The notes beneath the pieces are model-generated. The model had not been told where the DNA came from and did no database searches. It worked only from the letters and a program-made list of their open reading frames with translations. Source: Escherichia coli (lineage in GTDB: Bacteria > Pseudomonadota > Gammaproteobacteria > Enterobacterales > Enterobacteriaceae). Taken from it: DNA of 64,000 nucleotides. Shown here one piece after another: positions 12,627 to 62,706 of this stretch; within the stretch, counting starts at the first letter, position 1, and each line of letters begins with the position of its first letter. The stretch lies in assembly GCF_009931435.1 (NCBI RefSeq), contig NZ_CP043414.1; one strand, 5' to 3'. Made by a program: the position numbers and the translations under genes.

Positions 12627-13082
12627 TTAACGTTGTGTCACGCGAATAGCCATTTGCGACTGTCTCTGCACTACAATTGCCGTTTTTTGAGTACCATACT
12701 GTGTAATATTTGCTTTATTACCAGAACCTTTCTGGATAATCATCGCAGTATTACCATAAGCACCTTGCGAAATACTGGCATCGTTGGCATTGCCCGCCTG
12801 ATCAATATATGCAAGGTTATAATCTCCTGTCTGGTCAATCTTTGCCCGGTTGCTACTACCTTCTTGCGCAACAACCGCCAAAAGTTTTGAGCCTCCCTGC
12901 CGTAACTGAGCACTATTATTAGTCCCAGCTTGACCAATTATGGCTGCCTGATTAAATGAAGACTTACTCAATTCATTTACCGCGAAGTTATATTCTGAAT
13001 TAGCTAAATCATAACCTGCTGCGGCTGCAATCCCAGGCGCACCCAGTATTGTTAACATCATAAATAACAATTTGTTTTTCAT
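12627..13082 (-). CDS. csgB: Minor curlin/nucleator subunit CsgB
   Basis: ORF 12627..13109; start at MKNKLLFMMLTILGAPGIAAA gives 151 aa; curlin repeat architecture. Confidence 0.95.
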   Translation of the reverse strand: MKNKLLFMMLTILGAPGIAAAAGYDLANSEYNFAVNELSKSSFNQAAIIGQAGTNNSAQLRQGGSKLLAVVAQEGSSNRAKIDQTGDYNLAYIDQAGNANDASISQGAYGNTAMIIQKGSGNKANITQYGTQKTAIVVQRQSQMAIRVTQR

Positions 13083-13837
13083 GTTGTCACCCTGGACCTG
13101 GTCGTACATTTAAGAAATTAAATCATTTCAACTTAGTTGTTAACGCAACCTGTATTTTGTTAACGCCGCGTTACGATGGAAAGTATGTCTGCGGAAATAT
13201 TTTTAATAACTCACCCGCGCGTTGTATTTTTCTTTTTTTGTTCATACCAAAGTATTAAAACCCACGTAAATACGCTGTTATCTACGCAAAAAAAATATTT
13301 TGTTTTCTTTTAAATTTCGGTTTTCCGCAATCAAAAATCACCAGACAGTCATTCTTCTTGCCCGTCGCTGATTGCTGCGATATGTCTTGCGCACAAGCCG
13401 TGACAAACCTCGTCTTTTTGCAGTAAAAAATTGTCCACGGAGGTGTGGAGAAAAAACAAGAACGTTTTACATGACGAAAGGACTACACCGAAATATTTTT
13501 TATATGCATTATTAGCAAGTTAGCACCATTTGTATGATTTTTTAAAATTGTGCAAGAAAAACCAAATGTACAACTTTTCTATCATTTCTAAACTTAATAA
13601 AACCTTAAGATTAACATTTTAATATAACAAGTTACATTTAGTTACATGTTTAACACTTGATTTAAGATTTGTAATGGCTAGATTGAAATCAGATGTAATC
13701 CATTAGTTTTATATTTTACCCATTTAGGGCTGATTTATTACTACACACAGCAGTGCAACATCTGTCAGTACTTCTGGTGCTTCTATTTTAGAGGCAGCTG
13801 TCAGGTGTGCGATCAATAAAAAAAGCGGGGTTTCATC
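13083..13837. promoter_or_regulatory. csgBAC / csgDEFG divergent intergenic control region (about 755 bp, AT-rich)
   Basis: Unusually long AT-rich non-coding region between divergent csgB and csgD starts; known from the literature to carry the csgD and csgB promoters and a long csgD 5' UTR. Individual sites not mapped here. Confidence 0.7.
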
Positions 13838-14488
<651 letters not shown>

Positions 14489-19381: not shown

Positions 19382-19469
19382 GGTGAGGTGTCCGAGTGGC
19401 TGAAGGAGCACGCCTGGAAAGTGTGTATACGGCAACGTATCGGGGGTTCGAATCCCCCCCTCACCGCCA
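19382..19469 (+). tRNA. serX: tRNA-Ser (anticodon GGA), serX-type
   Basis: 88-nt sequence GGTGAGGTGTCCGAGTGGCTGAAGG...CCTGGAAA...GGTTCGAATCCCCCCCTCACCGCCA with long variable arm and encoded CCA. Confidence 0.95.
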
Positions 19470-19935
19470 TCTTTAAAGAAGAGCTCGTACGAAAGTACGG
19501 GCTTTTTTTTCGTATATTGCACACACCGGGGGGATGAGAAGCCCCGACAGGGGTTCGACAACTGGCGACAGCCAGTTGGACAGACCGTGAACGCAGTGAG
19601 CGGGCTGCCCGCAGGGCGAGCGAAGCGAGTCAATCCCCCCCTCACCGCCATCTTTAAAGAAGAGCTCGTACGAAAGTACGGGCTTTTTTTTTGTATATTG
19701 CACACACCGGGGGGATGAGAAGCCCCGACAGGGGTTCGACAACTGGCGACAGCCAGTTGGACAGACCGTGAACGCAGTGAGCGGGCTGCCCGCAGGGCGA
19801 GCGAAGCGAGTCAATCCCCCCCTCACCGCCATCTTTAAAGAAGAGCTCGTACGAAGGTACGGGCTTTTTTTTCGTATATTGCACACACCGGGGGATGAAA
19901 AGCCCCGACCGGGGTTCGACAACTGGCGACAAACT
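19461..19935. repeat. About 2.6 tandem copies of a ~181-bp unit, each carrying the serX 3'-terminal ~20 nt plus the terminator hairpin
   Basis: The string tcaccgccatctttaaagaagagctcgtacgaaagtacgggc recurs at about 19461, 19642 and 19823; copies 1 and 2 are near-identical, copy 3 is truncated and diverged; each unit also has an 8-bp palindrome caactggc-gaca-gccagttg. Confidence 0.85.
19482..19510 (+). terminator. Rho-independent terminator of serX (gctcgtac-gaaa-gtacgggc + T8)
   Basis: Hairpin followed by 8 T residues immediately 3' of the tRNA; repeated in each downstream repeat unit. Confidence 0.75.
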
Positions 19936-21392
19936 CAATCATCATCCTTGCAGTTGATAAGAATTTCTGCCTCTTTTACAACTATCTTATTACGTCCGGT
20001 TTCTTTCGCTTCATATAGTGCATTATCAGCCATTCGATAGATTTCATTCGGATTTAACGCACTTCCCTGAGTCACCACAGCGCCAATGCTAATCGTCACT
20101 TTTTGCGGTATGGCGTATTCAGGATTATCGCCTGTCAAACGCTCTACATTTGCCCTTATCCTTTCGGCTAAAACTTTCGCGCTTTCAGTATCGGTCTCCG
20201 TCAGCAAGACGCCAAACTCTTCGCCGCCAACGCGTGCTAAAAGGTCATTTGGTCGTATGCTTTTCCCAATGATGCTCACCACTGTTTTTATCACCTGATC
20301 GCCAACCGGATGCCCCCACGTATCGTTAACTTTTTTAAAGTGATCGATATCCATAATCATGACACAATAAGACGTTTTTTGGGCTGATGCTGATTGAGCC
20401 TTCAGTTCATTGAAAAAATAATTCCTGTTAAATATATTAGTTAATGGATCGCGATGGGCAATGTTCTTTGTTACTCGTAGCGCACTGAAAATATGGCACA
20501 TAAATATTACCATAACGGTTAATTTACTGACTACTTCAATAGTGCGGCTAATATACCAAGTGGACACACTATACCTGCTCATAAATAACAGAGAGATATT
20601 ATACAGCACGGCACAGAAAGCAATCACTGATACTCCATTCCAGATATCACAGCGTAAACCATTAAAGTATAGATTAACCAAAAGCAAGATTAACCACATG
20701 AAAATTATTATGGTAACATATGAGGTTTTCCAGACTACCTGACCATTTTCATTTGTTAACTCGGCAATATGTAAACTGTAGTCATCATAATGACTACTTA
20801 GCATGTGAGCAACTGCCGCCCCCCCATAAATAAAAAATAGGCTTATACACAATGTCATTTTTTTGGAAAAAAAACAGCGTTTCTTATTGTTTTCACTAAC
20901 TTTATTCACCAGCGCTAGCAATATTAACATGCACAAACTCATCTGACGAAACAAATAATAAATTGCAATATCATTTTGTACAACGCTGCTTATCAAATGC
21001 CCCTCAATAAATTGCTGAATGATAATGACAGTTTTAACAAAGTAAATCAAACAACTCAGAAACGCTAAACTAAGTATACAGTTTGAAAATTGCACACGAT
21101 CATAAATGAAATACAATTGCATGAAAATAAATGCAACGGTATCGATAAAAAATAAAGCAATCATAACCATTAGATAGGTTGATCGTGGAACAACCTCCTC
21201 AACGGTTGGCTGATTAAACCAACTATTTACCAAAACGAATGCAAGCCCAAACAATAAGCTCACCAATACAGTACTACTAATTCCCAAATAGTCTTTTTCC
21301 ATAAAGCTACACCAATCTGTAGGTTGTAGATCCCTTTCTGTCACTAATAGATATAAGAACTGTACTGTTGTCAATATAAAAATCCACCACAA
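19935..21392 (-). CDS. dgcT: Membrane-anchored diguanylate cyclase DgcT (YcdT), GGDEF domain
   Basis: 485-aa ORF beginning at a TTG codon; first in-frame ATG (MEKDYLG...) would give 455 aa. N-terminal multi-TM region plus C-terminal GGDEF with intact GGEEF motif. AT-rich gene. Confidence 0.88.
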   Translation of the reverse strand: MWWIFILTTVQFLYLLVTERDLQPTDWCSFMEKDYLGISSTVLVSLLFGLAFVLVNSWFNQPTVEEVVPRSTYLMVMIALFFIDTVAFIFMQLYFIYDRVQFSNCILSLAFLSCLIYFVKTVIIIQQFIEGHLISSVVQNDIAIYYLFRQMSLCMLILLALVNKVSENNKKRCFFSKKMTLCISLFFIYGGAAVAHMLSSHYDDYSLHIAELTNENGQVVWKTSYVTIIIFMWLILLLVNLYFNGLRCDIWNGVSVIAFCAVLYNISLLFMSRYSVSTWYISRTIEVVSKLTVMVIFMCHIFSALRVTKNIAHRDPLTNIFNRNYFFNELKAQSASAQKTSYCVMIMDIDHFKKVNDTWGHPVGDQVIKTVVSIIGKSIRPNDLLARVGGEEFGVLLTETDTESAKVLAERIRANVERLTGDNPEYAIPQKVTISIGAVVTQGSALNPNEIYRMADNALYEAKETGRNKIVVKEAEILINCKDDD

Positions 21393-21657
21393 ACAATACC
21401 AATGATGATAGTTGCAGACCGCAATTATTATTACCTTAGTGCTTTATACATTCTTCGCGACAAGACAGGCTTGCAAATACATATAAATGGTTATAAGGAA
21501 ATCCTTATAAAACATTAATTCATAGATATATTAGGAATAACAATTGAATCCGTGAGTACAGTAACGCTGCATTTCATCAGGACTTTCGAAAAATCCGATA
21601 TCATGCATCGGAATTTACTGATTTAATTATTTTAATCCTAATTTATTTTGAAAAAGG

Positions 21658-21894
21658 CATTGGAATTTATGCCGTATTCCTGAAGTTCCTCATCATTGGA
21701 ATGGATTTTCGGGCGAGAAAAGGATTTTATATGGATACTCTACTCATCATTTCTTCTTCTCATCATCAACAATTCACGTCTCTCTTCCGCGTTTAATAAC
21801 GGATTATGATGTGCATAAAAAATATCTTTCGTTTCAGTTACCTGTAATTAGATACAGAGAGAGATTTTGGCAATACATGGAGTAATACAGGATG
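21658..21894 (+). promoter_or_regulatory. pgaA 5' leader with GGA motifs (candidate CsrA binding sites) including one over the start codon
   Basis: GGA-containing motifs at about 21801, 21877 and acaGGAtg overlapping the ATG at 21892; leader extent taken from published knowledge of pgaABCD regulation, not mapped here. Confidence 0.45.
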
Positions 21895-24315
21895 TATTCA
21901 AGTAGCAGAAAAAGGTGCCCGAAAACCAAATGGGCTTTGAAAATTCTTACTGCCGCATTTTTAGCAGCGAGTCCCGCGGCGAAGAGTGCTGTTAATAATG
22001 CCTATGATGCATTGATTATCGAAGCTCGCAAGGGAAATACTCAGCCAGCTTTGTTATGGTTTGCACAAAAATCAGCACTCAGTAATAACCAAATTGCTGA
22101 CTGGTTACAGATTGCCTTATGGGCCGGGCAAGATAAACAGGTTATTACCGTTTACAACCGCTACCGTCATCAGCAATTACCAGCGCGTGGTTATGCAGCT
22201 GTCGCCGTCGCTTATCGTAACCTGCAACAATGGCAAAACTCGCTTACACTGTGGCAAAAGGCACTCTCTCTGGAGTCGCAAAATAAGGATTATCAACGGG
22301 GACAAATTTTAACCCTGGCAGATGCGGGTCACTATGATTCTGCGCTGGTTAAACTTAAGCAGCTTAACTCTGGAGCACCGGACAAAGCTAATTTACTCGC
22401 AGAAGCCTATATCTATAAACTGGCGGGGCGGCATGAGGATGAATTACGGGCGATGACAGGGTCATTACCTGAAAATGCCTTAACGCAACAATATCCCACA
22501 GAATACGTGCAGGCATTACGGAATAATCAACTTGCTGCCGCGATTGACGATGCCAATTTAACGCCAGATATTCGCGCTGATATTCATGCCGAACTGGTCA
22601 GACTGTCGTTTATGCCTACGCGCAGTGAAAGTGAACGTTATGCCATTGCCGATCGCGCCCTCGCCCAATACGCTGCATTAGAAATTCTGTGGCATGATAA
22701 CCCTGACCGCACTGCCCAGTACCAGCGTATTCAGGTTGATCATCTTGGCGCGTTATTAACTCGCGATCGTTATAAAGACGTTATTTCTCACTATCAGCGT
22801 TTAAAAAAGACGGGGCAAATTATTCCGCCCTGGGCGCAATATTGGGTTGCGTCGGCTTATCTCAAAGAACATCAGCCAAAAAAAGCACAGTCAATAATGA
22901 CAGAGATCTTTTATCACAAGGAGACCATTGCCCCGGATTTATCCGATGAAGAACTTGCGGATCTCTTTTACAGCCACCTGGAGAGTGAAAATTATCCCGG
23001 CGCGCTAACTGTCACCCAACATACCATTAATACTTCGCCGCCTTTCCTTCGGTTAATGGGCACGCCTACGAGCATCCCGAATGATACCTGGTTACAGGGG
23101 CATTCGTTTCTCTCAACCGTAGCAAAATATAGTAATGATCTTCCTCAGGCTGAAATGACAGCCAGAGAGCTTGCTTATAACGCACCAGGAAATCAGGGAC
23201 TGCGCATTGATTACGCGAGTGTGTTACAAGCCCGCGGTTGGCCTCGTGCGGCAGAAAATGAATTAAAAAAAGCAGAAGTGATCGAGCCACGTAATATTAA
23301 TCTGGAGGTTGAACAAGCCTGGACAGCATTAACGTTACAAGAATGGCAGCAGGCAGCGGTCTTAACGCACGATGTTGTCGAACGTGAACCGCAAGATCCC
23401 GGCGTTGTACGTTTAAAACGTGCGGTTGATGTACATAATCTTGCAGAGCTTCGTATCGCTGGTTCAACAGGAATTGATGCCGAAGGTCCGGATAGTGGCA
23501 AACATGATGTCGACTTAACCACCATCGTTTATTCACCACCGCTGAATGATAACTGGCGCGGTTTTGCTGGATTCGGTTATGCCGATGGACAATTTAGCGA
23601 AGGAAAAGGGATTATTCGCGACTGGCTTGCGGGTGTTGAGTGGCGGTCACGTAATATCTGGCTTGAGGCGGAGTACACCGAACGCTTTTTCAATCATGAG
23701 CATAAACCCGGCGCGCGCCTGTCTGGCTGGTATGATTTTAATGATAACTGGCGTATTGGTTCGCAACTGGAACGCCTCTCTCACCGCGTTCCATTACGGG
23801 CAATGAAAAATGGTGTTACAGGCAACAGTGCACAGGCTTATGTTCGCTGGTATCAAAATGAGCGGCGTAAGTACGGTGTCTCTTGGGCTTTCACTGATTT
23901 TTCTGACAGTAATCAGCGTCATGAAGTCTCACTTGAGGGTCAGGAACGCATCTGGTCTTCACCATATTTGATTGTCGATTTCCTCCCCAATCTGTATTAC
24001 GAACAAAATACAGAACACGACACCCCATACTACAACCCTATAAAAATGTTCGATATTGTTCCGGCATTTGAGGCAAGTCATTTGTTATGGCGAAGCTATG
24101 AAAATAGCTGGGAGCAAATCTTCAGCGCAGGTGTTGGTGCCTCCTGGCAAAAACATTATGGCACGGATGTCGTCACCCAACTCGGCTACGGGCAACGCAT
24201 TAGCTGGAATGACGTGATTGATGCTGGCGCAACGCTACGCTGGGAAAAACGACCTTATGACGGTGACAGAGAACACAACTTATACGTTGAATTCGATATG
24301 ACATTCAGATTTTAA
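21892..24315 (+). CDS. pgaA: PGA (poly-beta-1,6-N-acetylglucosamine) outer-membrane export porin PgaA
   Basis: 807-aa ORF with signal peptide, TPR-like N-terminal half and beta-barrel C-terminus ending in F; recognised as PgaA. Confidence 0.95.
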   Translation: MYSSSRKRCPKTKWALKILTAAFLAASPAAKSAVNNAYDALIIEARKGNTQPALLWFAQKSALSNNQIADWLQIALWAGQDKQVITVYNRYRHQQLPARGYAAVAVAYRNLQQWQNSLTLWQKALSLESQNKDYQRGQILTLADAGHYDSALVKLKQLNSGAPDKANLLAEAYIYKLAGRHEDELRAMTGSLPENALTQQYPTEYVQALRNNQLAAAIDDANLTPDIRADIHAELVRLSFMPTRSESERYAIADRALAQYAALEILWHDNPDRTAQYQRIQVDHLGALLTRDRYKDVISHYQRLKKTGQIIPPWAQYWVASAYLKEHQPKKAQSIMTEIFYHKETIAPDLSDEELADLFYSHLESENYPGALTVTQHTINTSPPFLRLMGTPTSIPNDTWLQGHSFLSTVAKYSNDLPQAEMTARELAYNAPGNQGLRIDYASVLQARGWPRAAENELKKAEVIEPRNINLEVEQAWTALTLQEWQQAAVLTHDVVEREPQDPGVVRLKRAVDVHNLAELRIAGSTGIDAEGPDSGKHDVDLTTIVYSPPLNDNWRGFAGFGYADGQFSEGKGIIRDWLAGVEWRSRNIWLEAEYTERFFNHEHKPGARLSGWYDFNDNWRIGSQLERLSHRVPLRAMKNGVTGNSAQAYVRWYQNERRKYGVSWAFTDFSDSNQRHEVSLEGQERIWSSPYLIVDFLPNLYYEQNTEHDTPYYNPIKMFDIVPAFEASHLLWRSYENSWEQIFSAGVGASWQKHYGTDVVTQLGYGQRISWNDVIDAGATLRWEKRPYDGDREHNLYVEFDMTFRF

Positions 24316-24323
24316 GGATAAAT

Positions 24324-26342
24324 ATGTTACGTAATGGAAATAAATATCTCCTGATGCTGGTGAGTATAATTATGCTCACTGCGTGCATTAGCCAGTCAAG
24401 AACATCATTTATACCGCCACAGGATCGCGAATCTTTACTCGCCGAGCAACCGTGGCCGCATAATGGTTTTGTGGCGATTTCATGGCATAACGTTGAAGAC
24501 GAAGCTGCCGACCAGCGTTTTATGTCAGTGCGGACATCAGCACTGCGTGAACAATTTGCCTGGCTGCGCGAGAACGGTTATCAACCGGTCAGTATTGCTC
24601 AAATTCGTGAAGCACATCGAGGAGGAAAACCGCTACCGGAAAAAGCAGTAGTGCTGACTTTTGATGACGGCTACCAGAGTTTTTATACCCGCGTCTTCCC
24701 AATTCTTCAGGCCTTCCAGTGGCCTGCTGTATGGGCCCCCGTCGGCAGTTGGGTCGATACGCCAGCGGATGAACAAGTAAAATTTGGCGATGAGATGGTC
24801 GATCGAGAATATTTTGCCACGTGGCAACAAGTGCGAGAAGTTGCGCGTTCCCGGCTCGTTGAGGTCGCTTCTCATACATGGAATTCTCACTACGGTATTC
24901 AGGCTAATGCCACCGGCAGCTTATTGCCTGTATATGTAAATCGTGCATATTTTACTGACCACGCACGGTATGAAACCGCAGCAGAATACCGGGAAAGAAT
25001 GCGTCTGGATGCTGTAAAAATGACGGAATACCTGCGTACAAAGGCTAAGGTAAATCCACACGTTTTTGTTTGGCCTTATGGTGAAGCGAATGGCATAGCG
25101 ATAGAGGAATTAAAAAAACTCGGTTATGACATGTTCTTCACCCTTGAATCAGGTTTGGCAAATGCGTCACAATTGGATTCCATTCCGCGAGTATTAATCG
25201 CCAATAATCCCTCATTAAAAGAGTTTGCCCAGCAAATTATTACCGTACAGGAAAAATCATCACAACGGGTAATGCATATCGATCTTGATTACGTTTATGA
25301 CGAAAACCGCCAGCAAATGGATCGCAATATTGATGTGCTAATTCAGCGGGTGAAAGATATGCAAATATCAACCGTGTATTTGCAGGCATTTGCTGATCCC
25401 GATGGTGATGGGCTGGTCAAAGAGGTCTGGTTTCCAAATCGTTTGCTACCAATGAAAGCAGATATTTTTAGTCGGGTTGCCTGGCAATTACGTACCCGCT
25501 CAGGTGTAAACATCTATGCGTGGATGCCGGTATTAAGCTGGGATTTAGATCCCACATTAACGCGAGTAAAATATTTACCAACAGGGGAGAAAAAAGCACA
25601 AATTCATCCTGAACAATATCGCCGTCTATCTCCTTTTGATGACAGGGTCAGAGCACAAGTTGGCATGTTATATGAAGATCTTGCCGGACATGCTGCTTTT
25701 GATGGCATATTGTTCCACGATGATGCTTTGCTTTCAGATTATGAAGATGCCAGTGCACCGGCTATCACGGCTTATCAGCAAGCAGGCTTTAGCGGGAGTC
25801 TGAGCGAAATTCGACAAAACCCGGAGCAATTTAAACAGTGGACCCGCTTTAAAAGTCGTGCGTTAACTGACTTCACTTTAGAACTTAGTGCGCGCGTAAA
25901 AGCCATTCGCGGTCCACATGTTAAAACTGCACGAAATATTTTTGCACTTCCGGTAATACAACCTGAAAGTGAAGCCTGGTTTGCACAGAATTATGCTGAT
26001 TTCCTAAAAAGCTATGACTGGACCGCTATTATGGCTATGCCTTATATGGAAGGTGTCGCAGAAAAATCGGCTGACCAATGGTTAATACAATTGACCAATC
26101 AAATTAAAAACATCCCTCAGGCTAAAGACAAATCTATTTTAGAATTACAGGCACAAAACTGGCAGAAAAATGGTCAGCATCAGGCTATTTCTTCGCAACA
26201 ACTCGCTCACTGGATGAGCCTATTACAACTGAATGGAATGAAAAACTATGGTTATTATCCCGACAATTTTCTGCATAACCAACCTGAAATAGACGTTATT
26301 CGTCCTGAGTTTTCAACAGCCTGGTATCCGAAAAATGATTAA
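24324..26342 (+). CDS. pgaB: PGA N-deacetylase lipoprotein PgaB
   Basis: 672-aa ORF with lipobox (MLTAC) and polysaccharide deacetylase motif (TFDDGY). Confidence 0.95.
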
Positions 26343-27660
26343 TCGCATCGTATCGTTTTTTATATTATGTCTGGTGTTATGCATACCCCTATGCGTAGCG
26401 TACTTTCACTCTGGTGAACTGATGATGAGGTTCGTTTTCTTCTGGCCGTTTTTTATGTCCATTATGTGGATTGTTGGCGGCGTCTATTTCTGGGTATATC
26501 GTGAACGCCACTGGCCGTGGGGAGAAAACGCACCAGCTCCCCAGTTGAAAGATAATCCGTCTATCTCCATTATCATTCCCTGTTTTAATGAGGAGAAAAA
26601 CGTTGAGGAAACCATACACGCCGCTTTAGCACAGCGTTATGAGAACATTGAAGTTATTGCCGTAAATGACGGTTCAACAGACAAAACCCGTGCCATCCTG
26701 GATCGCATGGCTGCACAAATTCCCCACCTGCGGGTCATTCATCTGGCGCAAAACCAGGGGAAAGCCATTGCGCTTAAAACCGGAGCTGCCGCGGCGAAAA
26801 GTGAATATCTGGTGTGCATTGATGGCGATGCGTTATTAGACCGCGATGCGGCGGCATATATTGTGGAACCGATGTTGTACAACCCGCGTGTGGGTGCCGT
26901 AACCGGTAATCCTCGTATTCGAACACGTTCTACCCTGGTGGGTAAAATTCAGGTTGGCGAGTATTCCTCAATTATTGGTTTGATCAAGCGAACCCAGCGT
27001 ATCTATGGAAACGTATTTACCGTTTCTGGTGTTATTGCCGCATTTCGTCGCAGCGCCCTGGCAGAAGTGGGTTACTGGAGTGACGATATGATCACCGAAG
27101 ATATTGATATTAGCTGGAAGCTGCAGTTGAATCAGTGGACGATTTTTTACGAGCCACGGGCGCTGTGCTGGATATTAATGCCTGAAACGTTAAAAGGGCT
27201 GTGGAAACAGCGCCTGCGCTGGGCTCAGGGCGGTGCAGAAGTATTCCTCAAAAATATGACAAGGCTATGGCGCAAAGAAAACTTTCGAATGTGGCCACTG
27301 TTTTTTGAATACTGTCTGACGACAATATGGGCCTTTACCTGCCTGGTCGGTTTCATTATTTACGCAGTCCAACTTGCAGGTGTACCGTTAAATATTGAAT
27401 TGACACATATCGCTGCGACACATACTGCCGGAATATTATTGTGTACGTTATGTTTACTGCAATTTATTGTCAGCCTGATGATCGAGAATCGCTATGAGCA
27501 TAATCTGACTTCATCGCTTTTCTGGATTATTTGGTTCCCGGTTATTTTCTGGATGCTGAGCCTGGCAACGACATTGGTATCATTTACACGAGTCATGTTG
27601 ATGCCTAAAAAGCAACGCGCCCGTTGGGTAAGTCCCGATCGAGGGATTCTGAGAGGTTAA
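26335..27660 (+). CDS. pgaC: PGA synthase glycosyltransferase (GT2) PgaC
   Basis: 441-aa ORF with GT2 motifs (DGD, QRLRW); 8-nt overlap with pgaB. Confidence 0.95.
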
Positions 27661-27661
27661 T

Positions 27662-28075
27662 ATGAACAATTTAATTATTACGACCCGACAATCGCCAGTA
27701 CGTTTAATGGTTGATTATGTTGCCACAACCATCTTATGGACATTATTTGCTTTGTTCATATTCTTATTCACCATGGATCTGCTGACGGGTTATTACTGGC
27801 AAAGTGAGGCCAGAAGCCGACTTCAGTTCTATTTTTTGCTGGCAGTGGCGAATGCCGTCGTGTTAATTGTCTGGGCGCTGTACAATAAGCTGCGTTTTCA
27901 AAAACAGCAGCATCATGCAGCCTACCAATATACGCCGCAAGAATATGCAGAGAGCTTAGCAATACCTGATGAGCTCTATCAGCAACTACAAAAAAGCCAC
28001 AGGATGAGCGTACACTTCACCAGCCAGGGGCAAATAAAAATGGTTGTTTCAGAAAAAGCGCTAGTCCGGGCATAA
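27662..28075 (+). CDS. pgaD: PGA synthesis accessory membrane protein PgaD
   Basis: 137-aa ORF with two TM segments, immediately after pgaC. Confidence 0.92.
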
Positions 28076-28088
28076 ACACCCAAAACAA

Positions 28089-28124: not shown

Positions 28125-29189
28125 TTAACTGTATGCATGTAGCGTACGTTGGCAAAGTGCCGAACGTACGCAATCCTCTTTACCGAATCGGACGATCCCG
28201 ACCATTTCATCTTCTTCGAAACGTTCCAGCGCGTCACTTAATCCGGAGCGCACGCCGCGAGGCAAATCGCATTGCGTGATATCACCGTTGACGATAACCG
28301 TCACGTTCTCCCCGAGGCGGGTTAAAAACATTTTCATTTGCGCGGCAGTCACATTCTGCGCCTCGTCAAGAATGACGACTGCATTTTCAAAGGTACGTCC
28401 ACGCATATAGGCGAACGGCGCGATTTCCACCTTCCCTATTTCCGGTCGCAGGCAGTACTGCATAAAGGAAGCCCCTAAGCGCCGGACCAGCACGTCGTAG
28501 ACCGGACGAAAATAGGGAGCAAACTTTTCTGCGATATCTCCAGGTAAGAAGCCAAGATCTTCATCGGCTTGCAGAACTGGACGGGTGACGATAATCCTGT
28601 CGACATCCTTATGTATCAGGGCCTCTGCCGCTTTTGCTGCGCTGATCCAGGTTTTTCCGCACCCGGCTTCGCCGGTGGCGAATATCAGCTGCTTACTCTC
28701 AATAGCCTTCAGATAGTGCAATTGCGCTTCATTTCGCGCGAGGATGGGCGAGGTATCGCGACTGTCGCGGGCCATACCAATGGCTTCTACGCCGCTCATC
28801 TGCACAAGCGAGGTGACCGATTCTTCTTCACGCTGCTTATGGCTGCGCGAATCCCGTCTCAGCACACGTTTTGCCTCGCGACGAGCTTTGATCACTGCTT
28901 TTTGTCTTCCCATGGAGAGCACCTTGAGTTGTTTGTATTCATCACACGCGCCGTTGGCAGCGCGATTATGCGCACGAACATCAGAGGGTTGGCTTCCTTG
29001 TAAGCCATAGTTTGCTTTTGGATAAAATGCCGAAAAACGGCTACGCGCACCGTTTACGGCGTCGGTAACACATGAAAAGAAAGGTTGAGGTTGAAAATGC
29101 AAAGTGACGAGATGACTACCGGAGGAGAAATCTCCGCGAGTGGTGGAGCGTTGCTTAACAAAACATTGTCCAGTACAGGACGTTACCAT
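28125..29189 (-). CDS. phoH: Phosphate-starvation-inducible ATPase PhoH (PsiH)
   Basis: 354-aa ORF with Walker A (GEAGCGKT); recognised as PhoH. Confidence 0.95.
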   Translation of the reverse strand: MVTSCTGQCFVKQRSTTRGDFSSGSHLVTLHFQPQPFFSCVTDAVNGARSRFSAFYPKANYGLQGSQPSDVRAHNRAANGACDEYKQLKVLSMGRQKAVIKARREAKRVLRRDSRSHKQREEESVTSLVQMSGVEAIGMARDSRDTSPILARNEAQLHYLKAIESKQLIFATGEAGCGKTWISAAKAAEALIHKDVDRIIVTRPVLQADEDLGFLPGDIAEKFAPYFRPVYDVLVRRLGASFMQYCLRPEIGKVEIAPFAYMRGRTFENAVVILDEAQNVTAAQMKMFLTRLGENVTVIVNGDITQCDLPRGVRSGLSDALERFEEDEMVGIVRFGKEDCVRSALCQRTLHAYS

Positions 29190-62035: not shown

Positions 62036-62208
62036 GGTCAGTGCGTATTTGCAGCGCGACGTTATCAAAGGTGATCATCGTCGATTTACAAAAAATACAC
62101 TTTGCCCCTAAAGGATTTCGCTCCGTCACATCGAATGCCGATGTGCGGTACTGTGAACCATGACAACATGGACAGCGGAAATGGAGATGTTGAGTAATAA
62201 CGGCAACC

Positions 62209-62421
62209 TTAGAGCGTAACAACGTTCGCTGCCGCGGGACCACGTTGCCCCTGCTCAATAGAAAATTCAACTTTCTGATTTTCGTTCAGCGTGCGGAATT
62301 CATTGCTCTGGATGGCGGTGAAATGGACGAAAACGTCTTTGCTGCCATCATCAGGAGTGATAAAGCCAAAACCTTTATCTGCGTTAAACCATTTTACTAA
62401 ACCAGTCATTTTATTAGACAT
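62209..62421 (-). CDS. cspG: Cold-shock protein CspG (CspA family)
   Basis: 70-aa [24 protein letters not shown] with RNP1/RNP2 motifs. Confidence 0.95.
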
Positions 62422-62706
62422 ATTTTACTTCCTTCATTTTGGGCCTTTCGGCAAACAGGGCTTTAATACAGAAACTACTTAGTGTTCAGGAGAGAGACTC
62501 AAAAGAAGGGGATAATGCCTGATAATGAGAACTACTTTAGTAAACTACTTTGTATGCTGTCTGTCTTTCAAACCGACGCAGCTATTAACGCATGATAATT
62601 GAGATTAAGCAATTTTTATTTTAGCCGTCCGGCGGTCTTAAATATCGCTGGCTTTATTTTATTAACCCCGTATAGTGCAGCGCAGTATTTTCAGTAAGGA
62701 ATTTGT

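Follow-up and report, generated by a model that had tools for sequence, protein, structure and literature searches.

Between the divergently transcribed curli operons of Escherichia coli lies a long non-coding interval, and the question raised by this locus is what the interval contains and whether the copy found here is intact. In the window, i.e. the whole stretch of 64,000 nucleotides that was analysed, the non-coding gap between csgB and csgD, delimited by means of the sequence and the ORF list, extends from position 13083 to position 13837. Its length of exactly 755 bp agrees with the figure of about 755 bp given in an earlier sequence-only reading of this DNA, since the ATG of csgB occupies positions 13080-13082 on the minus strand and the ATG of csgD begins at 13838 on the plus strand. 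The csgB gene (12627-13082, minus strand, start at 13082) is the first gene of csgBAC and specifies the curli nucleator, a protein of 151 aa with the N-terminus MKNKLLFMMLTILGAPGIAAAAGYD (ORF opening MKNKLLFMMLTILG); it differs from its K-12 counterpart in 1 of 456 nt. The csgD gene (13838-14488, plus strand), the first gene of csgDEFG, encodes a FixJ/LuxR-type biofilm master regulator of 216 aa and differs from K-12 in 5 of 651 nt. According to the ORFs and the RefSeq annotation of matching genomes, the flanks consist of csgB/A/C and csgD/E/F/G in the gene order of K-12 and CP074749, and transcription on the two sides of the gap is divergent. The identity of the flanking ORFs excludes that the gap is anything other than the csgB-csgD region. 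The interval is thus almost certainly the canonical csgBAC-csgDEFG intergenic regulatory region of E. coli, which should work as it does in K-12.

This region sets whether E. coli makes curli and, via CsgD, also cellulose and the biofilm lifestyle, and as few parts of the chromosome are regulated so densely, it is worth checking in any new strain. Its assignment to the divergent curli operons, already made in the sequence-only reading, is borne out by the flanking genes, by 98.3% identity to K-12, by an Rfam match to the csgD leader and by the literature. The same reading had called the region not novel and had described it as integrating many regulators and small RNAs that act on the csgD 5' UTR; the region is indeed known and well studied, and the regulatory statement is backed by published work (PMC5745457, PMC12713406, PMC6061853). 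In the following, the identity of the region, its coordinates, the intactness of the sites and their conservation were deduced from the sequences, while the binding proteins and their actions were taken from the literature.

The AT-richness and the A/T tracts that had been pointed out were confirmed by base composition. The whole control region has a GC content of 34.3%, compared with 0.497 as a fraction for the window, and only 2.9% of all 755-bp windows in it are equally AT-rich. Homopolymers of A or T with a length of at least 5 occur at 15.9 per kb in the gap and at 4.3 per kb in the window (3.7-fold denser), and the GC fraction drops to 0.235-0.31 across positions 13400-13800. The description as one of the longest intergenic regions turned out to be an understatement, as the csgB-csgD gap is the longest in the window. 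This ranking is based on the RefSeq annotation transferred from the nearest genome, CP074749, with which the window is collinear except for positions 19915-28082, where the ORFs of the pga segment (ycdT, pgaABCD) were read directly. The runner-up is the phoH-efeB gap of about 646 bp (370 bp with phoH taken as a long ORF of 354 aa), followed by ycdT-pgaA with 499 bp and serX-ycdT with about 465 bp. The phoH-efeB gap owes its length to about 90 bp that are extra relative to CP074749 (29435-29518). The gap up to ycdT is filled by a 181-bp tandem repeat (19451-19931; 2.7 copies, 98% identity) that starts inside the 3' end of tRNA-Ser(GGA) (19382-19469) and looks like a repeated tRNA-end or att-type sequence. 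Like K-12, the strain possesses ycdT (dgcT) and pgaABCD (19935-28075). CP074749, whose csg spacer resembles that of the window most closely, has about 1.2 kb with a DUF2726 gene in place of these 8 kb.

In K-12 MG1655 the counterpart of the interval comprises 754 bp (1,103,197-1,103,950) between csgD (b1040) and csgB (b1041). The alignment confirmed full-length homology, with 742 of 755 aligned positions being identical, 12 substitutions and one extra A at position 13288, where eight A residues are found here and seven in K-12, the latter being the derived state. All 13 differences are located in columns that vary between genera. The last 208 bp (13630-13837), into which the OmpR D1 box, the core promoter and the complete leader fall, are identical to K-12; no deviation from K-12 affects the transcriptional start site (TSS), either arm of the MlrA palindrome, the CsgD box or the GTTAACA repeats. 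Unlike K-12, the strain has an imperfect MqsA palindrome (13610), a private SNP at 13135 and a rare SNP at 13629. Accordingly, all mapped sites are intact except the MqsA palindrome.

Of 5426 complete E. coli genomes, 5371 gave a match to the region, and 5329 of the latter showed full coverage at 97-99.6% identity, corresponding to a variation of 0.4-3%. Full-length coverage was lacking in 43 matching records from 42 genomes, and 55 genomes gave no match; five to six of the matches are located on plasmids. Among the matches listed, two genomes carry IS1 insertions inside the spacer, and no other annotated feature overlapped it. The lineage of the strain is sparsely sampled, with the best 25-kb match at 99.3% identity and typical E. 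coli genomes at about 97.7%; the best match to the interval itself is 99.6% identical and shows three differences.

For a comparison beyond the species, a conserved CsgD peptide was searched for in one genome per species by means of a degenerate DNA pattern, which yielded 93 loci. Both the csgB and the csgD start could be placed in 60 of these, representing about 20 named groups with genus-level labels, and the respective gaps were aligned with MAFFT. The csgB-csgD distance was 742-802 bp (median 761) in the 60 species, a range kept by all genera from Escherichia to Buttiauxella and Franconibacter and still observed at CsgD identities as low as 77%. The alignment revealed a three-part structure that consists of a csgBA module of about 180 bp (13083-13262), a central stretch and a csgD module of about 350 bp (13490-13837). 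Within the csgD module, identity peaks at the right arm of the MlrA palindrome (0.98), at the OmpR site, the -35 and -10 regions and the TSS (0.86-0.96), at stem-loop II of the leader (0.91) and at the Shine-Dalgarno (SD) sequence (0.89). Since these peaks coincide with published sites, the functional map of the region was reproduced independently by the alignment.

Published sites were placed by setting the csgD TSS to position 13691 and converting their coordinates accordingly; all of the following lie on the plus strand. The core promoter (13657-13684; identity 0.93-0.96 across species) contains the -10 hexamer TAGATT (13679-13684) in its wild-type regulated form and, at a spacing of 16 nt, a candidate -35-like TTGATT (13657-13662) that we assign tentatively. 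The position of this -10 hexamer together with a TSS located 147 nt before the csgD ATG follows from the identity to K-12 and from the start of an Rfam model described below. The O157:H7 variants ATCC 43895 and FB38 possess the same promoter, except that a single base turns regulated into constitutive curli expression: they have TAGAAT at the -10 position (AATCT>ATTCT on the other strand; PMC7232329), and this curli-up variant is absent from the window. A scan with a sigma-70 pattern produced two promoter-like matches on the plus strand of the gap, fewer than in shuffled sequences, and missed the real csgD and csgB promoters; it is uninformative for activator-dependent promoters of this kind.

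Upstream of the core promoter, the activating OmpR site D1, GTTACATTTAGTTACATGTT, occupies positions 13631-13650 with its centre at -50.5 and is identical to that of K-12; D1 was published at -51 (PMC13304067), and E. coli has a single D1-homologous OmpR site (PMC10002515). The MlrA palindrome AAAATTGTGCA-N12-TGTACAACTTT is located at 13544-13577 (box sequence according to PMC9662190), its two arms, AAAATTGTACA and TGTACAATTTT, being those of K-12 and the N12 spacer carrying one substitution; the right arm shows, in the 60 species, the identity of 0.98 given above. The published footprints comprise those of H-NS from -201 to +28 (13490-13718; PMC12388358, PMC4894380), of IHF at the promoter-proximal site from -96 to -37 (13595-13654; PMC4894380) and of RcsB from -31 to +54 (13660-13744; PMC12388358), of which the last is identical to K-12. 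Two published CpxR boxes at -102 to -90 (13589-13601) and -80 to -68 (13611-13623) flank the MqsA palindrome (PMC4894380). From about position 13491 onwards A/T content is conserved across genera. According to the published roles of these proteins, a promoter read by RpoS or RpoD (TAGATT, TSS 13691) would be activated by OmpR at D1 and by MlrA at its palindrome, with IHF shaping the promoter DNA and with H-NS, CpxR and RcsB acting as repressors.

Five of the variants fall within published footprints, all of them in that of H-NS and two, 13610 and 13629, also in that of IHF. The variants 13516 (-175) and 13523 (-168) are situated in the H-NS zone, and 13556 (T>G, -135) is the N12 substitution noted above for the MlrA palindrome. 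The variant 13629 (-62), 2 nt upstream of D1, is shared with 15 of 4813 E. coli genomes; although rare in this species, A at 13629 is a common state of E. albertii and of other genera.

The variant 13610 (G>A, -81) affects the MqsA palindrome at 13601-13612 on the plus strand, which reads AACCTTAAGATT (AACCT-TA-AGATT) in the window and is therefore imperfect, compared with AACCTTAAGGTT (AACCT-TA-AGGTT, at about -78) in K-12. One may suppose that the alleles of this strain materially change curli regulation, with 13610 G>A removing repression by MqsA and the private SNP 13135 strengthening the csgBA promoter. In favour of the former part, the change from AGGTT to AGATT lies in an arm of the palindrome, and a five-base change of this arm drastically reduced MqsA binding (PMC4894380). 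The distribution of the allele speaks against it: the exact 49-mer with 13610A is present in 2184 of 4757 complete E. coli genomes (46%), so that the perfect site is missing from roughly half of the matched genomes, and outside Escherichia A or T is the majority state of this column. The perfect K-12 site is therefore a polymorphism that is neither fixed nor defining for the region. Moreover, a recent systematic survey found the expression of curli reporters unaltered by a deletion of mqsR (PMC12713406). That about every second matched E. coli genome has no perfect MqsA site may help to explain conflicting reports on MqsR/MqsA and curli.

The latter part concerns the csgB side of the gap, where all elements are given for the minus strand. 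The 19 nt abutting the csgB ATG (13083-13101; CCAGGTCCAGGGTGACAAC on the csgB strand) are conserved with a mean identity of 0.95 in 60 species and appear to form the 3' portion of the csgB leader, including the ribosome-binding region. They are followed by a poorly conserved, AT-rich segment (13102-13136), the length of which deviates in other genera by as much as about 45 nt in either direction and which probably holds the -10 region and the TSS of csgBA. The adjoining conserved upstream activating module (13139-13262) is composed of alignment blocks at 13158-13166, 13172-13178, 13182-13189, 13205-13218, 13225-13233 and 13251-13256. The conserved stretch as a whole (13137-13262) includes two exact copies of the repeat TTGTTAACGC (GCGTTAACAA on the csgB strand) at 13137-13146 and 13157-13166, 20 bp apart. 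Each copy includes a putative -35-like TTAACA, and the genera share GTTWAC.

Further upstream of csgB, the block at 13205-13218, GCGGGTGAGTTATT, has a mean identity of 0.92 in 60 species and constitutes a putative CsgD box. It fits the CsgD consensus, which reportedly reads CGGGKGAKNKA (Zakikhany 2010). CsgD produced from the opposite operon would bind this box and switch on the curli subunit genes.

The private SNP at 13135 (G>A on the plus strand, C>T on the csgB strand) lies in the probable core-promoter area of csgBA, at a distance of 53 nt upstream of the csgB ATG, and follows the second conserved GTTAACA element by 2 nt. None of 5350 complete E. coli genomes contained its exact 61-mer, and G occupies this position in all other Escherichia. 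Whether it touches the promoter depends on the register. With TTAACA as the -35 element, a candidate -10 hexamer TAATTT is found 17 nt further on (13116-13121), and in an alignment of 19 genera the arrangement TTAACA-17 nt-TAATTT/TAAATT/TAAAAT fits Escherichia, Citrobacter, Salmonella, Kosakonia and Phytobacter but fails in Leclercia, Huaxiibacter and Pseudenterobacter. In this register position 13135 is a mere spacer base. An alternative register is suggested by a match of 83% between C[T]AAGTTGAAAT on the csgB strand (13125-13136) and the -10 region of csgD, CTAGATTGAAAT; here the SNP would turn CAAGTT into TAAGTT, a better -10 that gains the conserved T of TAnnnT. Such an effect has a precedent in the single-base changes of the csgD -10 region that are known to switch curli on (PMC7232329). 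On the other hand, the column of 13135 is free to vary in other genera, and the divergence of 0.7-0.9% from the nearest genomes lets 3-7 private neutral changes per 755 bp be expected, i.e. several even at the value of about 0.7% for the nearest complete genomes, compared with the three differences seen from the best hit. On balance, it is unlikely that the two alleles materially alter the regulation of curli. The critical parts of the region appear to be wild-type, given that no base of the core promoter or the leader departs from K-12 and that the change known to cause constitutive expression is missing, and from the sequence we infer that curli regulation of the strain is essentially wild type, i.e. 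dependent on temperature and RpoS. The genes of the trans-acting factors, such as rpoS, mlrA and ompR, are situated outside the window.

Downstream of the csgD TSS, the 5' leader (13691-13837, plus strand) is 100% identical to that of K-12, in which the 5' UTR of the csgD mRNA has a length of 147 nt (PMC6061853). It comprises an A/U-rich region for RNase E and Hfq (13703-13718; PMC6061853), stem-loop I, CCCAUUUAGGG, directly after this stretch (13719-13729), stem-loop II (about 13754-13811) and stem-loop III with the SD sequence and the AUG (13828-13853), all on the plus strand. The predicted fold of the leader contains helices at about 13754-13811 and at 13828-13853 that agree with the published stem-loops II and III (PMC6061853), while the minimum free energy structure of the 5' part shows a longer alternative helix in place of the small published stem-loop I; the overall fold is only slightly more stable than that of shuffled sequences (z = -1.81). 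According to the literature, the leader would be a target of Hfq and of at least seven small RNAs, some of which would block initiation and others of which, together with Hfq, would trigger cleavage by RNase E in the A/U-rich stretch.

The first part of the leader also gave a match to the Rfam family RF02752, 'ES056 sRNA' (13691-13782, plus strand), with 119.7 bits compared with a gathering threshold of 43 and with coverage of model positions 1-92 of 92. ES056 was described as a 92-nt 'novel intergenic small RNA transcript' of K-12 (1102475-1102566, minus strand) that begins at an annotated TSS (PMC4676190). As 147 nt before position 13838 leads to 13691, these coordinates identify ES056 as the first 92 nt of the csgD leader, starting at the TSS at 13691. 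By its coordinates, RF02752 is the csgD leader rather than a separate intergenic gene, and a terminator-like site was not found at the 3' end of ES056.

This result bears on the central part of the gap, a spacer of about 230 bp (13263-13490, no strand assigned) with a low conservation of 0.15-0.5 bit per column and a near-constant length. An unannotated small protein or an independent small RNA gene hidden there might explain its retention, as its length is conserved, as two ORFs of 45 and 47 aa are found mechanically at 13176-13313 and 13372-13515, and as Rfam lists an 'sRNA' within the interval. The only Rfam match in the gap is, however, the csgD leader just described, and promoter-like and terminator-like matches are no commoner than in shuffled sequences. 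Furthermore, a stop-free frame is not shared between species, the longest open stretch differing in strand and, at the minimum, covering just 99 nt of the centre, and the central 260 bp are saturated between genera, with a global identity of 0.45-0.57 compared with 0.45-0.47 after shuffling. Even in E. albertii the identity of this part is just 0.71. A central ORF or RNA gene was consequently rejected as highly improbable, there being no conserved ORF, no Rfam match in 13263-13490 and only saturated sequence.

The sole conserved island of the central spacer (13399-13425, no strand assigned), located about 287 bp upstream of the csgD TSS, consists of GTSAC, about 9 nt and a T-run, with CTTAAG in many genera. 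It was considered as a CRP site and rejected by eye, because only the left half resembles TGTGA and the right half is unconserved. A periodicity of A/T at 10-11 bp gave a borderline peak in 13263-13404 (0.257 compared with a 95% permutation maximum of 0.238); helical A/T periodicity was found nowhere else in the spacer across the species.

The length of the spacer is far better conserved than its sequence. The central stretch measures 257-269 bp in 18 genera, and a motif-based count of the spacer gave 353-366 bp in 53 of 54 species. The distance from the CsgD box to the csgD TSS is 476-489 bp (SD 3.4) and that from position 13404 of the island to the block at 13535 is 129-133 bp (SD 0.77), each in the 60 species. 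For the same species, the distance from the csgB ATG to the CsgD box is 107-149 bp (SD 8.4) and the csgD leader length is 144-169 (SD 7.0). The variable segments of the two leaders contain far less unconserved sequence, and yet their lengths shift by up to about 25-40 bp. One tentative explanation, which we regard as possible though short of probable, is that the central 230-280 bp or so act as an architectural spacer selected for length and not for sequence, which would hold the csgBA module at a distance of about 480 bp from the csgD start and thereby allow the divergent promoters to share one nucleoprotein structure, formed by bending or bridging through H-NS, IHF, OmpR, MlrA and CsgD. Such a selection on spacing is in line with a recent proposal by which csgBA, like csgD, is a direct target of MlrA, OmpR and IHF (PMC12713406). 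The constant spacer length is an only mildly new point beyond the statements found in the literature, and the conservation of length but not of sequence across the Enterobacteriaceae provides a testable handle on the coupling of the two promoters.

The agfD-agfB region of Salmonella enterica shows the same architecture, with a length of 755 bp in the strains of a published study (PMC6611641) and of 760 bp in S. diarizonae. It shares the CsgD box, the GTTAACA repeats, the right arm of the MlrA palindrome, OmpR D1 with the -35 and -10 regions, and leader stem-loop II. Overall it is about 62% identical, the central 260 bp being near random (0.52 compared with 0.47 after shuffling) and the leader differing in its first 54 nt or so; additionally, H-NS, RcsB and cAMP-CRP have been reported to act with opposite sign in Salmonella (PMC12388358, PMC7409106). 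Most natural SNPs of the Salmonella region left promoter activity unchanged, whereas those at -47, -80 and -189 reduced it (PMC6611641).

These observations along with the number of neutral changes expected in this lineage indicate that the view of the sequence-only reading, by which any variation in the interval is likely to be phenotypically important, is too strong. The variation of 0.4-3% within E. coli and the position of all 13 differences from K-12 in unconserved columns point in the same direction, and what holds of that view is that particular SNPs did matter in Salmonella. The effect of the base changes in the present strain is probably small.

Apart from the csgD leader, three further Rfam matches were noted elsewhere in the window. 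ES036/CssrF at 45468-45510 (plus strand) was barely over the threshold with 38.5 bits, and the cspA thermoregulator was detected at 62155-62577 (minus strand) in the cspG/cspH area with 156.9 bits. A full-length match to Ysr251, a Yersinia antisense sRNA, was obtained at 28130-28323 (plus strand) with 192.8 bits, antisense to the 3' end of phoH.
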